DNA of 4,832 nt, taken from a virus (lineage: Duplodnaviria > Heunggongvirae > Uroviricota > Caudoviricetes). Made by a program: the position numbers and the translations under genes. The notes under the pieces are model-generated. The model was not told the origin of the DNA. It made no database searches and worked only from the letters and a program-made list of their open reading frames with translations. Where the stretch lies: positions 1 through 4,832 of IMG/VR virus record IMGVR_UViG_2579778650_000007, one strand, 5' to 3'. Shown piece after piece: positions 1 to 4,832 of the stretch. How positions within the stretch are numbered: position 1 is the stretch's first letter; the number at the start of each line of letters is the position of its first letter.

Positions 1-295
1 CGGTATCGTGGCAACGGCGGATGATGCGGACGCGAAGCTGTTCCCGCTGAACAAGCCCACACTGCTGACCCGCGTCAATGACGTGCTGGGAAAATGCGGA
101 ACAACGGGGACGCTTTATCGTGCGCTTAAGGCCATCGCAGACCAGGTGAGCACAAAGGTGATCGTCGTTCGCGTGGCTGAACACAAAGAAGAAGACGGAA
201 ATGGCAGTATATCGGGGCAGGCGATGATCGCATCGTGCTTTCTGGTGTGCTTTATCCTGAAATCACAGGTGGCGAAGTGTCGCTGTCGCTGCTGA
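1..295 (+). pseudogene. 5' fragment of a P2 gpFI-like tail sheath gene (frame 2, open to the window start; the true start lies upstream of the window). Sheath similarity ends near 200, after which the frame runs about 30 unrelated codons to a stop at 293-295.
   Basis: Frame-2 translation GIVATADDADAKLFPLNKPTLLTRVNDVLGKCGTTGTLYRALKAIADQVSTKVIVVRVAEHKEEDGNG resembles the N-terminal region of P2 tail sheath FI as I recall it (..DADAETFPLNKPVLITNV..GTL..LQAIADQ..). Only about 70 aa of a roughly 390-aa protein family are present. No search was run. Confidence 0.55.
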
Positions 296-573
296 CCACG
301 CAGGCGTATACAGGACGCCCCTGGCCTCTGATTGATGGCGTCGGACAGATTTACGGCATGTATGTACTGACTGAAACGAATACGACCCGCTCCGAGTTTG
401 ATCGCTACGGTAAGGCGAAAAAGATAGAATTTTCACTGACACTTGAACGCTGTGATGAGGATTTGCGGGAGCGCCTGCAATCCTCATCGTTCAGTGATAT
501 GCTGTCCGGCTTCAAAGATAAGGTCACATCATCCCTTAACAGCGCGGCCAGCTCCGTTAAAGGGCTGTTTTGA
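199..573 (+). pseudogene. 3' portion of a P2 gpU-like tail protein gene (frame 1). There is no in-frame ATG; the ORF track starts it at GTG 235, but the similarity begins upstream at about 199-205. It is joined out of frame to the sheath fragment.
   Basis: Frame-1 translation KWQYIGAGDDRIVLSGVLYPEITGG..WPLIDGVGQIYGMYVLTE..KKIEFSLTLERCDE matches my recollection of P2 gpU (..FQFLGVGEENITLAGVLYPELTGG..WPLLDGTGMIYGMYVI..RKIDFTLSLTRVDE). Frame 1 has stops at 178-180 and further upstream, so the N-terminal ~37 codons of a gpU are missing. Confidence 0.5.
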
Positions 574-580
574 TTAACGC

Positions 581-610
581 AAAACCGCTAATGGTCAGAT
601 TAGCGGTTTT
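581..610. terminator. Bidirectional intrinsic terminator between the convergent gpU-fragment and invertase genes
   Basis: Perfect inverted repeat AAAACCGCTAAT (581-592), loop GGTCAG, ATTAGCGGTTTT (599-610). It is followed by a T-rich run on the plus strand (CATTTTCC), and the stem itself ends in TTTT on either strand. The invertase stop codon (600-602, minus) lies inside the stem. Confidence 0.55.
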
Positions 611-1199
611 CATTTTCCTGAGTCTGCCTGGTTGTTTCTTCAGCCTGTATATCGCCTACAGGGTGATAACGATAAATCGTCGATATGCCGATGTCGTAAA
701 TGATCGCCAGTTGTTTCCTGTCATGACCGTTTTTAATCAGCCTCGCTATTTGCTCGTGTTGTTCTTTTGTCAACTTCGGGCGACGTCCGCCAATGCGTCC
801 TTGTGCGCGTGCTGCTGCCAGCCCGGCCAGTGTACGCTCTACAATTAATTCACGTTCCATTTCGGCTAAAGCTCCCATGACGTGAAAAAAGAAACGCCCC
901 ATGGGTGTTGATGTGTCAATGCTGTCCGTTAGACTACGGAAATTAACACCTTTTTCCCGCAATTCCTCAATAAGCGTGATCAGGTGTTTCATACTTCTGC
1001 CCAGTCTGTCCAGCTTCCAGACAACCAGCGTATCTCCTTCTGATAGCGTTCTGAGCAGTTTTTTCAATCCCGGTCTGGCTGATTTCGTTCCGCTGATTTT
1101 ATCTTCAAAAATCAGTTCACATCCTGCGCACTCCAGCGCGTTACGCTGCAATTCTGTATTCTGGTCATTTGTTGATACGCGGACATAGCCAATAAGCAT
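600..1199 (-). CDS. Serine-recombinase DNA invertase of the Gin/Pin/Cin/Hin family (199 aa)
   Basis: N-terminus MLIGYVRVSTNDQNTELQRNALECAGCELIFEDKISG..TLVVWKLDRLGRSMKHL..GVNFRSLTDSIDTSTPMGRFFFHVMGALAEMERELIVERT is near-identical to the resolvase/invertase catalytic domain, with the catalytic Ser at position 9. The C-terminus (GRRPKLTKEQHEQIARLIKNGHDRKQLAIIYDIGISTIYRY) is the HTH DNA-binding domain. A possible Shine-Dalgarno (AGGGGA) lies upstream of the ATG at 1197-1199. Confidence 0.93.
   Translation of the reverse strand: MLIGYVRVSTNDQNTELQRNALECAGCELIFEDKISGTKSARPGLKKLLRTLSEGDTLVVWKLDRLGRSMKHLITLIEELREKGVNFRSLTDSIDTSTPMGRFFFHVMGALAEMERELIVERTLAGLAAARAQGRIGGRRPKLTKEQHEQIARLIKNGHDRKQLAIIYDIGISTIYRYHPVGDIQAEETTRQTQENENR
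1125..1180. promoter_or_regulatory. Predicted Fis-dependent recombinational enhancer (sis-like) inside the 5' coding region of the invertase gene
   Basis: Placed by analogy only. In the Hin, Gin and Cin systems the enhancer lies within the first ~100-170 bp of the invertase gene. The minus-strand sequence here (GTATCAACAAATGACCAGAATACAGAATTGCAGCGTAACGCGCTGGAG) closely parallels the hin enhancer region as I recall it. Fis sites were not individually resolved. Confidence 0.3.
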
Positions 1200-1226
1200 G
1201 ATGGATCCCCTGAATAAAAACCGGGG

Positions 1227-1625
1227 ATGATGCCAGTTAGCCGTAATCTCTGCATTTTCTTAAACGTTGGTTTAGGAGAAGCGGCAAAACGGAATGTGGG
1301 CACAGGAGATAATCAGATACCGGATATGGGAGCATTCGCTTCTGGTTCGGGATGGTTCAGGCTACCAGGTGGATATATTGTTCAGTTTGGCACTTTTGCA
1401 GGAAACACGACCCGCTTTATCAGTGGACACTTCCCTATACCATTCCCTAATCAGCCGATGGTTTCAGTCAGTGTTATGTCTGATGCCGTTCAGTCAGACC
1501 CGTCGATTCCTGCCCCGCAGGTTTTGTCTGTAAATTTTGAACATATCAGTAATTCAGCGTGGCGTGTGGCAACCAGTGATATCTCACAGCAATACAGATT
1601 CAGTTATATTTCGATAGGACGGTAG
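1227..1625 (+). CDS. Alternative tail-fibre C-terminal cassette (Sv'-like), silent in the present orientation. The functional part is 1281..1625 (114 aa after the shared GLGE); the ATG at 1227 probably only opens the frame.
   Basis: The translation carries ..NVGLGE immediately followed by a divergent C-terminal domain (AAKRNVGTGDNQ..YRFSYISIGR). GLGE is encoded exactly on the crossover site and is shared with the tail fibre at aa 379-382. The stop at 1623-1625 is 2 nt before the start of the downstream chaperone gene. Confidence 0.7.
   Translation: MMPVSRNLCIFLNVGLGEAAKRNVGTGDNQIPDMGAFASGSGWFRLPGGYIVQFGTFAGNTTRFISGHFPIPFPNQPMVSVSVMSDAVQSDPSIPAPQVLSVNFEHISNSAWRVATSDISQQYRFSYISIGR
1255..1280. 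other. Invertase crossover site, invertase-proximal (gix/pix-like, 26 bp, central dinucleotide TT at 1267-1268)
   Basis: TTTTCTTAAACG TT GGTTTAGGAGAA. The inner half-site (rc TTCTCCTAAACC) fits the invertase half-site consensus TTATCnAAAACC. It lies about 55 bp upstream of the invertase start and overlaps the codons V-G-L-G-E of the plus-strand cassette. Confidence 0.75.
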
Positions 1626-1627
1626 AA

Positions 1628-2068
1628 ATGCAGAAATATATTTTCAGTGCCGATAAAAATGCGTTTTTCCCTGTGGAGCTTAAAATCGCTTATCAGGAAT
1701 CCGGCGAATGGCCCGATGATGGAATCGAAATTGACGACACTGTTGCTGCCGAATTTATGAAGGAAGCACCAGAAGGAAAATACAGAGGTGTCATCGACGG
1801 AATGCCTGCATGGATTGATATTCCACCGCCAACTCATGAGGAACAAATTGCCGCAGCCGAACTGAAAAAGCAGCAATTGATTAATCAGGTCAACGAATAC
1901 ATAAACAGTAAGCAATGGCCTGGTAAAGCGGCGATTGGTCGCCTGAAAGGTGAGGAACTGGTGCAATATAATTTGTGGCTGGATTATCTGGACGCACTGG
2001 AACTGGTCGATACTTCCGGTGCGCCAGATATTGAATGGCCTACGCCTCCGGCAGTTCAGGCCAGATGA
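1628..2068 (+). CDS. Tail-fibre assembly chaperone (Tfa/gpG/U'-like, 146 aa), cognate to the alternative cassette
   Basis: ATG at 1628 preceded by AGGACGG. The C-terminus VDTSGAPDIEWPTPP has the conserved Tfa motif DTSxAPDIEWP. It lies inside the invertible segment and is co-oriented with the alternative cassette. Confidence 0.85.
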   Translation: MQKYIFSADKNAFFPVELKIAYQESGEWPDDGIEIDDTVAAEFMKEAPEGKYRGVIDGMPAWIDIPPPTHEEQIAAAELKKQQLINQVNEYINSKQWPGKAAIGRLKGEELVQYNLWLDYLDALELVDTSGAPDIEWPTPPAVQAR

Positions 2069-2633
2069 CATCCGGTGCGGTGCTGGTATCTGTTGCCGTC
2101 ACCGCGTCAATATAATCCAGCACAGCGTTAAGTCGGGTGTTTTCTGGCTGCGTCAGCTTCCGCACGGCCTGTAATTTCAGTTGAATCAGACTGATGGAAG
2201 CCATTGCAGCATCAATCAGCGACTGGCGCTTTACTTCTGCCGCGTCTAGTGCGGCGCTATGCTGTGCCTCGGTATCCGTCACCCATTTCTCACCATCCCA
2301 TTTATCGTATGGCGTTAACGGTGAAAGCGTGACATAACCGTCTTTGATGGCACCGATATAATCCACTGTAACAGCTGCGCCATTTTCGATTGAGTAAACA
2401 GTCTCATTGCGGTGGTCTTCTTCATGGCTCCATCCCTTACCCGTAAATACTGCCACTCTTCCCGGAATGTATTCGCCCGGGTCAATACCAGTGGAACAAG
2501 CGGGCATACTTACGCCAGTATTAATATATTCATCAGACCAGCCAGTATATTCATACGTAACTGCCTCATAATAAAAACAACGCATATTACCCGGTACTGT
2601 AGCCAGCCCATTTTCATCAAAAACAGGTTTCAT
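2040..2633 (-). CDS. Tail-fibre assembly chaperone (Tfa/P2 gpG/Mu U-like, 197 aa), cognate to the currently expressed fibre tip
   Basis: The C-terminus VTATDTSTAPDVIWPELPEA has the Tfa motif. Its start codon overlaps the tail-fibre stop (TAATG at 2631-2635 on the minus strand), suggesting translational coupling. The central part (GKGWSHEEDHRNETVY..DKWDGEKWVTDTEAQ) resembles lambda/P2-type Tfa proteins. Confidence 0.88.
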   Translation of the reverse strand: MKPVFDENGLATVPGNMRCFYYEAVTYEYTGWSDEYINTGVSMPACSTGIDPGEYIPGRVAVFTGKGWSHEEDHRNETVYSIENGAAVTVDYIGAIKDGYVTLSPLTPYDKWDGEKWVTDTEAQHSAALDAAEVKRQSLIDAAMASISLIQLKLQAVRKLTQPENTRLNAVLDYIDAVTATDTSTAPDVIWPELPEA

Positions 2634-4297
2634 TATTTAGCCCTCACTAGAAAGTTAAATGCAATATTTCGTGGGCGGGTTTCTGTACCTACATTTCCAC
2701 TAATTTCACCATAACGTTTAACGCTACGAGAGCTAATAGCTCGTAGTGAGGAAGGCACCCTAAGACCGGGTTCGTCCGTTTTAACTATTCCCCCGTCACC
2801 ATATGTAGCCAGTATTCCTGGGTTGACTCCTTCCCGTGTACTTCCTGCGACAAGCCCGTCCCCCGTCCACAATTCCATATTGTGTGCATGATCCATAATT
2901 GTGTGTGATTGCCCTGAAAGTAGGGTACGTCCGACATCAATCCCGCGTCCGTCATCCCAGATACGAATGAAATCACCGCGTGCGTCAGGTAATGCCAGCG
3001 CCGGAAACACTTTCGCCAGCACAGGGTAATCAGTGGCAGAGAATTTCGCGCCGTTGAACTTCAAAAACACCATGCTGGACCAGCTATCGATTACGGTATC
3101 TGGCATTGCTGCGGACGGCCAGAAGAACGGAACGCCAATAGCTGGAGCACCTTCTCCCAAACCAAGGTAATCAAGAACTCCCTGAGTGCTGGTTTTACCA
3201 AGAATGGCACGTCCAACACTTGTCAACGCGGTTAACGCGGCACGATCTGCCCCTGTAAAATATGGGAGTTTATCTGCTGATGTAGCAAGCTCCGCCAGCG
3301 CCGTCAGGGTGGCATCCTTCGGTTGCTTACCCGCAAGCGCGTTAGTCATGGTGGTCGCAAAATTCGGGTCATTGCCCAGCGCCGCAGCCAGTTCGTTCAG
3401 CGTGTTCAGTGCATCAGGTGACGAATCTACAAGTGCGGCAATCGCAGCCATAACGAAAGCCGTGCTTGCGATCTGGGTACTATTAGTCCCCTGTGGCGCT
3501 GTTGGTGTTGTTGGCGTTCCGGTCAGTGCCGGGCTGTTTAATGGTGCTTTCTTGTTCGTTTCATCCATTACCGCCTTAACAGCTTTTGGTGTCGCTGCCA
3601 GCGTTTCAGACGTGCTGTTCGTGGCGCTACTGAGCTGAACAATCCCTTTTTGTGTAGTGGTGGCGTTCTGGGCGGTATATTTCCCGTTAGCCAGGTCATA
3701 TGCAGCCTTAACCGCTTTCGGTGTTGCGGCCAGTGTTTCTGATTCACTGTTAATTGCACTGCTTAACTGAGTAAAACCTTTTACGGTCAGCGAGGCGTCC
3801 GGGTGACGTCGTGACTGTTCGTGCTCTGATATTTTATCATCCACATATTTGCGGGTTGCCAGAACCACAGACGGGTCGATTTTCAGCGTGATAGCTTCGG
3901 TGTTCGTGACAACCAGAATCATGCGGATAGTCTGGGTGCGTCCACTGCCTTCCTGCAACTGCGGTTTGTACGTTTCCGGGCAGTTTGCCACCGCAATGAG
4001 TACACCTTCATCATCATAAAGACCAATCTCACGGATCCAGAATCCTCCCTCGTTTTCAGGGATGATTTGCTCCGCAATAATCTGGCTCTGATTGTTAGGG
4101 TCAACACTCAGAAGATTCAGCGGTGCAATGCGTTTCTGGTTAATCAGTTTTGTTTGTGCAGGGTCTGGTGTTGGTAACACACCATTTGCATCACCAACGG
4201 CCATTTGCGTCAGATTCAGCTTACTGCCGAGCATCGTCGCGTTAGCCAGTCGTGCCGCGCCCTGATTAGTCAGAATGGCGTAGTATTTCACTGTCAT
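2633..4297 (-). CDS. Tail fibre protein, P2 gpH-like (554 aa): constant N-terminal part aa 1-382 (coded at 3152..4297), variable C-terminal receptor-binding part aa 383-554 (coded at 2636..3151, inside the invertible segment)
   Basis: N-terminus (..MAVGDANGVLPTPDP..GGFWIREIGLYDDEGVLIAVAN..YKPQLQEGSGR) and the paired shaft repeats QLSSA(I/T)NS(E/T)SETLAATPKAVKA match my recollection of P2 gpH. The start overlaps the gpI-like stop (ATGA at 4294-4297). Confidence 0.93.
   Translation of the reverse strand: MTVKYYAILTNQGAARLANATMLGSKLNLTQMAVGDANGVLPTPDPAQTKLINQKRIAPLNLLSVDPNNQSQIIAEQIIPENEGGFWIREIGLYDDEGVLIAVANCPETYKPQLQEGSGRTQTIRMILVVTNTEAITLKIDPSVVLATRKYVDDKISEHEQSRRHPDASLTVKGFTQLSSAINSESETLAATPKAVKAAYDLANGKYTAQNATTTQKGIVQLSSATNSTSETLAATPKAVKAVMDETNKKAPLNSPALTGTPTTPTAPQGTNSTQIASTAFVMAAIAALVDSSPDALNTLNELAAALGNDPNFATTMTNALAGKQPKDATLTALAELATSADKLPYFTGADRAALTALTSVGRAILGKTSTQGVLDYLGLGEGAPAIGVPFFWPSAAMPDTVIDSWSSMVFLKFNGAKFSATDYPVLAKVFPALALPDARGDFIRIWDDGRGIDVGRTLLSGQSHTIMDHAHNMELWTGDGLVAGSTREGVNPGILATYGDGGIVKTDEPGLRVPSSLRAISSRSVKRYGEISGNVGTETRPRNIAFNFLVRAK
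3152..3177. other. Invertase crossover site, distal (gix/pix-like, 26 bp, central AA at 3164-3165), located inside the tail-fibre gene
   Basis: TTCTCCCAAACC AA GGTAATCAAGAA. Positions 3152-3165 match the reverse complement of 1267-1280 at 13 of 14 positions. The site encodes L-G-L-G-E (aa 378-382) of the fibre. Confidence 0.75.
3572..3772. repeat. Tandem direct repeat (two copies of about 69 bp, 132 bp apart) encoding the fibre shaft repeat QLSSAxNSxSETLAATPKAVKA
   Basis: 3704-3772 and 3572-3640 encode aa 176-198 and aa 220-242 of the tail fibre and are visibly similar at the DNA level (GCCTTAAC.GCTTT.GGTGT.GC.GCCAG.GTTTC.GA..). Confidence 0.6.
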
Positions 4298-4832
4298 GCG
4301 TTTACTCTCAGATTATCAATTAAATGAATGGCCGGGGCAGGGAAATAATCCCCTTCGACAATAATGGACTCCGGGGTGTAGGGATAAACCGTCAGGGCAT
4401 CGCCGTGATAGCATCCCGTACCAACGAAAATCTTTCCGTTCACACTCAGGCTGATCGCCAGCCCCGTCAGATGGCGACTTACTGGTTTTGCATCCGCAAT
4501 AAGGCGCTCAAGTTCCTGATACATTTCATCGGTGATGCCCTGATCAAGTACTCCGACAACAATGCGAAATGTTCCCGGCTCCTCGTTGAGTTGCCACCAC
4601 TCCTTTACTTCAATCAGGTAGCCGAGAGGCTCCACGGCTCTTCGCAGTGCGCTGATGGTCCCTTTGTGTCGGTGTATCAGCCATGCATCACGAATCACCT
4701 GTCGCTTTGTCTCTTCCGGCCAGTTGCGATCCCAGTGGTCAACGGAAAATGCCCAGGCGAGATAAGGCAGCAGATGCACCGGGCAGGTGTCCGGCGACCA
4801 CAGCGTGTTGAGGTCTACCGGGATGTCTGTAA
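4294..4832 (-). CDS. Baseplate protein, P2 gpI-like; 5'-partial, the gene continues beyond the window end
   Basis: The frame is open from 4832 with no stop. The translation ..IPVDLNTLWSPDTCPVHLLPYLAWAFSVDHWDRNWPEETKRQVIRDAWLIHRHKGTISALRRAVEPLGYLIEVKEWW.. matches my recollection of P2 gpI (..LLPWLAWAFSVDRWDEKWPEATKRAVIRDAYFIHCHKGTIGAIRRVVEPLGYLINVTEWW..). The GTG at 4779 used by the ORF track is internal. Confidence 0.88.
   Translation of the reverse strand, partial: TDIPVDLNTLWSPDTCPVHLLPYLAWAFSVDHWDRNWPEETKRQVIRDAWLIHRHKGTISALRRAVEPLGYLIEVKEWWQLNEEPGTFRIVVGVLDQGITDEMYQELERLIADAKPVSRHLTGLAISLSVNGKIFVGTGCYHGDALTVYPYTPESIIVEGDYFPAPAIHLIDNLRVNA

Follow-up and report, generated by a model that had tools for sequence, protein, structure and literature searches.

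Evidence for a Din-family inversion switch exchanging the tail-fibre tip in frame in a P2-like prophage of Escherichia coli

Background

The window analysed here, by which we mean the whole stretch of 4,832 bases, carries a tail-fibre gene, a second fibre tip lying silent on the opposite strand and, next to the latter, a gene for a DNA invertase. The question raised by this locus is whether inversion can bring either tip behind the constant part of the fibre, and whether the fibre would still be read as one protein after the exchange. The preliminary description, made from the sequence of the window, had proposed that a GLGE codon block common to both crossover sites would let inversion swap the tip in frame. 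We find that it does: the inverted window encodes a continuous ORF, sibling prophages are found in two orientations, and the exact protein expected from the inversion is present in the NCBI database.

We are highly confident that the locus is a site-specific inversion switch of the Din family, Pin/Min type, which exchanges the tail-fibre tip together with its chaperone in a P2-like E. coli prophage. This type of switch is already known and has been shown experimentally to invert, and both protein products of the locus are in NCBI. The result matters little beyond correct annotation, and offers a worked example of an invertase switch recognised from raw sequence.

Gene content of the window

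The window corresponds to one entire draft contig, JICC01000160.1 of assembly GCA_000691025.1, in reverse complement; this identity was checked. Both window ends are thus contig ends, probably caused by other P2-like prophages in the same genome. The window covers the tail-fibre end of a P2-like prophage (Peduoviridae) of E. coli. Its features, other than the crossover sites and the candidate enhancer, are as follows.

4294-4779, minus strand: C-terminal part of gpI (ORFs and domains)
2633-4297, minus strand: gpH-like tail fibre of 554 aa (ORF; Pfam Phage_tail_fib, 2e-62, and Phage_fiber_2 repeats)
3166-4297, minus strand: constant part of the fibre, aa 1 to about 377, outside the segment (ORF and Pfam)
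2633-3163, minus strand: tip A, the now-expressed variable C-terminus, fibre aa 383-554, ending ...RPRNIAFNFLVRAK (ORF)
2040-2633, minus strand: tip A assembly gene, 197 aa, TfaE-like (Pfam Caudo_TAP, 1.5e-24)
about 1266/1269-1625, plus strand: tip B, the silent cassette, GLGE followed by AAKRNVGTGDNQ...YISIGR (Pfam Gp53-like_C, 3.9e-9, C-terminal domain)
1628-2068, plus strand: tip B assembly gene, 146 aa, TfaP-like (Pfam Caudo_TAP, 9e-34)
1267-3165, no strand: invertible segment, 1,899 bp core to core, with two alternative fibre tips and two assembly genes (exact inversion of the equivalent segment between sibling strains)
600-1199, minus strand: Din-family serine DNA invertase, 199 aa (Pfam)
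581-610, no strand: candidate two-way terminator hairpin, a 12-pair stem followed by a T run, with the same arms as inverted repeat I19
235-573, plus strand: gpU remnant (ORFs and domains)

From the ORF map and the domains, the segment excludes the constant 5' part of the fibre gene and includes the two alternative 3' parts, on opposite strands and each followed by its own assembly gene. The two tips carry different Pfam domains, tip A having a weak match to the Collar domain, and the comparison of their sequences yielded no significant alignment. Tip A shares 43% identity with the tip encoded by stfE in the e14 prophage. In the window the tip B cassette has no promoter. The assembly proteins are related to those of e14, the 197-aa TfaE-like protein being 60% identical to TfaE and the 146-aa TfaP-like protein 56% identical to TfaP, and their genes are convergent with an overlap of 29 nt (2040-2068).

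Several smaller elements were also observed. An 18-nt inverted repeat (I3, 1978-1995 / 2104-2121, 89% complementary) corresponds to a C-terminal motif, (W/V)LDY(L/I)DA, common to the two assembly proteins and encoded on the two strands; the C-terminal ends of both proteins are almost identical to the TfaP/TfaE ends of e14. The hairpin at 581-610 is a perfect 12-bp stem (AAAACCGCTAAT...ATTAGCGGTTTT) with A and T runs on either side, located between the convergent gpU remnant and invertase gene.

Among complete genomes, the closest relative is E. coli O111:H2 strain 12A, with 99.9% identity over positions 202-4832. The same gene set, including a protein annotated as 'DNA invertase', is found in GenBank relatives such as Escherichia phage 500465-2 and Xuanwuvirus P88.

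Crossover sites

Two 26-bp sites were identified at the borders of the segment, each consisting of a pair of imperfect 12-bp half-sites on either side of a 2-bp core, and both agree with the family consensus.

1255-1280, no strand: site L, the invertase-proximal crossover site, TTTTCTTAAACG TT GGTTTAGGAGAA, core TT at 1267-1268 (29.5 bits, highest score in the window)
3152-3177, no strand: site R, the crossover site inside the fibre gene, TTCTCCCAAACC AA GGTAATCAAGAA, core AA at 3164-3165 (23.6 bits, second in the window)

Site L is intergenic, beside the invertase gene, and site R is located at fibre codons 374-382. The sites are inverted relative to each other: the reverse complement of site R reads TTCTTGATTACC TT GGTTTGGGAGAA, and once the sites are aligned in inverted orientation their core dinucleotides are equal and non-palindromic. 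Over the core and the inner half-site, 13 of 14 positions match, against only 5 of 12 over the outer half-sites; the match is extended by one further base (G) and then ends. The plus strand translates to VGLGE over 1266-1280 and the minus strand to VLDYLGLGE over 3178-3152, i.e. aa 374-382 of the 554-aa fibre. Both cassettes read the core dinucleotide and the inner half-site in the same frame, as Leu-Gly-Leu-Gly-Glu. All the figures of the preliminary description, namely the site positions, the codon readings and the equivalence of the two cores, were reproduced when we recomputed them, and the same holds for its remark that only the inner half-sites are well conserved.

As a plain inverted repeat, the L/R pair is absent from the 25 longest inverted repeats of the window. 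The pair is too short to stand out in this way and repeat length alone cannot support the finding, so site-specific scoring was used instead. A consensus pattern allowing up to 3 mismatches matched at these two sites only in the window and never in 200 shuffles. Because this pattern was possibly biased by the site itself, a scoring matrix was rebuilt solely from the 12 half-sites of gix, cix and pix in the annotated Mu, P1 and E. coli K-12 (e14) records, and was checked against the published table of Din-family sites (PMC3241671), which also served for the comparisons with individual sites. Scoring against known invertase sites, a check suggested in the preliminary description, clearly singled out the two sites: the scan of the window gave 29.5 and 23.6 bits, with 7.3 bits for the next-best position and 14.9 bits for the best position in 300 shuffles. 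The outer half of site R taken separately scored poorly (6.8 bits). The reverse complement of site L is identical to the published pixR of e14 at 24 of 26 positions, and site R is identical to the published mixQ''R' of p15B at 25 of 26 positions and to pixL at 22 of 26. Taken as a plain inverted repeat, the pair does not exceed chance; taken as invertase sites, it exceeds chance by far.

A third site, which would have indicated a multiple-inversion system such as p15B Min or a shufflon-like one, was sought and rejected, the third-best position (7.3 bits) being within the range of the shuffles. The window contains two sites only, and the system accordingly has two states.

The same figures bear on the reading that the match to invertase sites is coincidental and the in-frame fusion an accident of a short repeat. 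A bare inverted repeat of 13/14 bp is indeed unexceptional in 4.8 kb, but the scores of an independent matrix are far above those of the shuffles, the sites match experimentally defined ones at 24/26 and 25/26 positions, and an invertase gene adjoins. The fusion product and the inversions found in nature, described below, weigh further against it.

Predicted product of the inversion

We inverted the segment computationally and translated the result from position 4297. Whether 1269-3163, 1267-3165 or 1268-3164 was inverted, the identical continuous ORF of 496 aa was obtained, in agreement with the fibre of about 496 aa announced in the preliminary description. The recombinant fibre consists of aa 1-382 followed by AAKRNVGTGDNQIPD...YRFSYISIGR. 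The common frame at the two sites is what allows residues 383-554 (tip A) to be exchanged for the 114-residue Gp53-like tip B, so that the window encodes a continuous fibre ORF in both orientations, of 554 and 496 aa respectively. The inversion also puts the assembly chaperone gene belonging to tip B directly downstream of the fibre gene. A protein identical to the predicted 496-aa fibre at every residue is recorded in NCBI (WP_072131337.1 / SQB77012.1), and the fibre of strain JB2, in which tip B is joined, differs from the prediction by 1 residue.

These results affect the annotation of the locus. In RefSeq, the silent tip is annotated as a stand-alone protein of 132 aa (window 1227-1625), whose ATG is outside the segment and which is read across site L. 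The ORF that opens at ATG 1227 passes through site L in frame and so would read into either tip; no Shine-Dalgarno spacing was seen upstream of this ATG when the sequence was read. The 132-aa 'gp53-like domain-containing protein' beside the invertase is the silent fibre tip and no independent gene. Where a genome has the other orientation, the automatic pipeline has broken up the continuous fibre ORF (496 or 501 aa) into a gp53-like protein and pseudogene pieces labelled 'incomplete'. Such split annotations occur at 5585-7075 of locus L001, 3539-5029 of locus L002 and 4606-6111 of locus L005.

Natural inversions in sibling prophages

Complete E. coli genomes were searched with the window as it is and with its computationally inverted version, and relatives were found by both searches. 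In 5,426 complete E. coli genomes, the parental junction between the constant part and tip A was present at full length in 4, and the recombinant junction between the constant part and tip B in 9. Public genomes already contain both states of the switch. An isogenic inverted twin of exactly this prophage was also sought among these complete genomes, and none covers more than 88% of it, because the best inverted relatives have another second cassette. Two other pairs of strains, each effectively isogenic, were used instead.

In the first pair, O157:H7 strains FRIK944 and BB24-1, the flanks are 100% identical (3,080 and 3,682 bp) and the 1,920-bp middle is exactly inverted. The second pair, strains B7A and 503025, shows the same pattern, with an exact inversion of the equivalent segment between matching flanks, and in addition allows the crossover to be mapped. 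The inner half-sites of B7A/503025 are one base apart, A or G (GGTTTAGGAGAA versus GGTTTGGGAGAA), and this marker moves with the segment, whereas the last base of the outer half-site, which is G in one site and C in the second, keeps its place. The crossover consequently lies within the 7 bp TTGGTTT (window equivalent 1267-1273), which start with the core dinucleotide. An uninterrupted fibre ORF was read in each of seven related loci, whichever way round the segment lies, the lengths being 544/501, 501/468 and 554/496 aa; JB2, DETEC-S589 and 503025 have tip B fused in frame to the fibre. Inversion of the segment with crossover at the core is thus observed for sibling prophages, the source window being a single 4.8-kb draft contig in one orientation. 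The preliminary description had named an interrupted ORF at the recombinant junction, or inversion junctions mapping elsewhere, as the outcomes that would contradict it. We looked at both: the junction ORF is continuous, and the breakpoints in the siblings lie inside the sites.

With natural inversions at exactly these sites and the exact fusion product in NCBI, the coincidence set out above is refuted jointly by the strain-pair inversions, the crossover mapping, the matrix scores and the 496-aa NCBI protein, and we give it practically no weight.

Compared with window 2322-3150, JB2 (L001, 4026-5170) and DETEC-S589 (L002, 2070-3124) have another second cassette, while sharing the fibre constant part, tip B and the TfaP-like gene. 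The difference concerns either the tip alone or the tip and part of the chaperone gene. JB2 has the G type at both inner half-sites. The crossover site is thus also a boundary of cassette exchange between prophages. As the point at which tips are exchanged, the LGLGE cassette boundary is useful for fibre engineering.

This exchange of cassettes at the boundary, seen in the two strains that have tip B joined and another second cassette, together with the G type of both inner half-sites of JB2, could be taken to mean that the orientations of the strains arose by homologous recombination, modular cassette exchange or assembly error instead of site-specific inversion. We consider such an origin very improbable. 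Orientation of the segment is all that separates the members of each of the two strain pairs, their flanks and segment being identical in other respects, and four independent assemblies agree. Moreover, the common repeat is only about 16-18 bp, a length too short for efficient RecA-dependent recombination, and the marker exchange narrows the crossover to 7 bp around the core of a canonical invertase site. Site-specific inversion by an invertase remains our reading of these pairs.

Invertase and candidate control elements

The invertase comprises an N-terminal Resolvase domain (Pfam, 6e-52) and a C-terminal HTH_7 domain (1.4e-12). It shares 82% identity with PinE, 75% with Cin and 74% with Gin, and the motifs YVRVSTNDQ, which contains the catalytic serine, and KLDRLGRS are conserved in the alignment of the invertases. 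It is identical at 199/199 positions to the invertases of strains 12A and JB2. Its gene is outside the segment and points away from site L, like gin and pinE. One candidate control element was located within it.

1110-1181, minus strand: candidate recombinational (Fis) enhancer stretch, invertase codons 7-30 (same position as the enhancer of the P1 record)

This stretch is identical at 57/72 positions to P1, 58/72 to gin and 61/72 to pinE. A Fis-bound enhancer may therefore be contained in the 5' end of the invertase gene, where the Gin, Cin and Pin systems have theirs, a suggestion drawn from position and resemblance; the same stretch is also conserved coding sequence, so that its conservation is no independent proof. 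A simple scan of both strands around the invertase start, including the 55-bp gap to site L (1200-1254), detected no sigma-70-like promoter. Within this gap, between the start codon of the invertase and site L, a small terminator-like hairpin was observed on the minus strand (1238-1219).

The invertases Hin, Gin and Cin make a staggered 2-nt cut at the core of their sites and exchange the ends by subunit rotation, and they need Fis, the enhancer and supercoiling; in this family the cut involves a phosphoserine link. By likeness to these enzymes, the invertase of the window would make 2-nt staggered cuts at the TT/AA core of both sites and religate the ends after rotation, and would depend likewise on Fis, enhancer and supercoiling. 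As in Mu and P1, switching would be expected to alter the receptor and the host range.

A defective copy of the prophage

Relative to strain 12A, the window lacks 4,917 bp at the junction of positions 201 and 202. Bases 1-201 are the 5' part of a P2-type tail sheath gene (Gp18_domIII_N), joined to the middle of gpU. The deletion fuses the sheath gene (at about codon 95) to gpU, removes the tube, gpE and tape-measure genes and most of the sheath gene, and also takes about the first 39 codons of gpU. No obvious microhomology was found at the 201/202 junction. Contig DBJOAO010000114.1 (L014) and a metagenome scaffold (L015) carry this deletion too; being shared with two other assemblies, it marks a real defective lineage and no assembly error. 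Owing to this 4.9-kb deletion, the switch may have no phage phenotype in the source strain. The invertase ORF, both sites and both cassettes are intact despite it.

The deletion raises the alternative that the architecture is a frozen relic, i.e. that in the source strain the switch no longer flips, or flips without consequence, the prophage being defective. The fusion of the sheath gene to gpU by the 4,917-bp deletion, found in two other assemblies as well, agrees with this, as does the simple scan, in which the invertase had no promoter-like site. All five contigs with the exact 554-aa fibre are in the tip-A orientation too, although this is necessarily so. On the other side, the invertase is intact and 199/199 identical to those of intact prophages in both orientations (12A and JB2), and both sites are intact and close to active ones. 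Furthermore, inversion still takes place in the cryptic K-12 prophage e14, which is no less defective (PMC4272514), and Din invertases of other prophages can act in trans, as PinQ does on e14 (PMC12529663). On balance a relic appears unlikely, though it is the alternative to which we give the most serious consideration, and an inversion switch of the Pin/Min type is retained as our reading of the locus.

A further, quite improbable suggestion is that the switch is kept for the benefit of the host in a lineage without sheath, tube and tape-measure genes. If it were so, the fibre or tip protein might block a receptor against other phages, as reported for StfE2, the product of inversion of the e14 P segment by PinQ, which is reported to block adsorption of phage T2 (PMC12529663). 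Alternatively, the switch might re-arm the tails of a second P2-like prophage or of a tailocin in the same cell.

Comparison with known systems

The layout is shared with the e14 P segment and PinE of K-12, which has the same succession of elements: an invertase gene pointing away from the proximal site, a silent tip, two convergent tfa genes, an expressed tip and the constant part. The tfaP and tfaE genes of e14 overlap convergently by 29 nt, exactly as in the window. At the pix site of stfP, the inner half and the core are identical to those of site R, and the junction peptide reads NLGLGE in e14 and YLGLGE in the window. The two elements differ in that e14 is lambdoid whereas the window prophage is P2-like (gpI, gpH, gpU), with unrelated constant parts of the fibre. 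Tip B, with its Gp53-like domain, has no counterpart in e14, and the C-terminal tail of the window invertase is 15 residues longer than that of PinE.

With p15B Min, the window shares the exchange of tail-fibre tips and the outer half of site R, GGTAATCAAGAA, which is wholly that of mixQ''R'. Min differs by its six sites and many permutations, against two sites and two states in the window.

The Mu G segment with Gin and the P1 C segment with Cin belong to the same mechanism class as the switch of the window and serve the same purpose. In Mu the invertase gene is placed as in the window. In P1, by contrast, cin reads towards the segment and cixL overlaps the 3' end of cin. The core is GA/TC in Mu and AA/TT in the window. 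Mu (NLGLQE), P1 (YLGLRE) and e14 (NLGLGE) all translate their crossover site in the frame used here, as L-G-L-x-E; the GLGE block is thus not special to the window element. The repeats of Mu measure 34 bp against about 16-18 bp in the window, and only Mu is longer among the sequences that we examined. The repeats of the P1 C segment are about 0.6 kb.

Hin of Salmonella moves a promoter and not coding ends, and hin lies inside its own segment. Its hix sites resemble those of the window in being 26 bp long with an AA/TT core, and hixL and hixR share 14 bp, corresponding to the core and one half-site (PMC3241671). The shared repeat of the e14 pix pair is equally short, 16 bp, after which the sites diverge. 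The one point on which the preliminary description has to be amended is therefore its view of the L/R repeat as unusually short: this length is typical of the family.

Finally, invertible tail-fibre loci have been described in the P2-like prophages of EPEC E2348/69, where both orientations were detected side by side in cultures by sequencing and PCR (Goldberg et al. 2014, PMC4272514). One of these loci has three repeats and four variants (PMC4272514). Going by their published description, they are of the same kind as the window locus. More broadly, in a survey across bacteria, tail-fibre genes located by 'phage tail protein I' and 'tail fiber assembly protein' were among the most enriched contexts of programmed inversion (PMC9881135).
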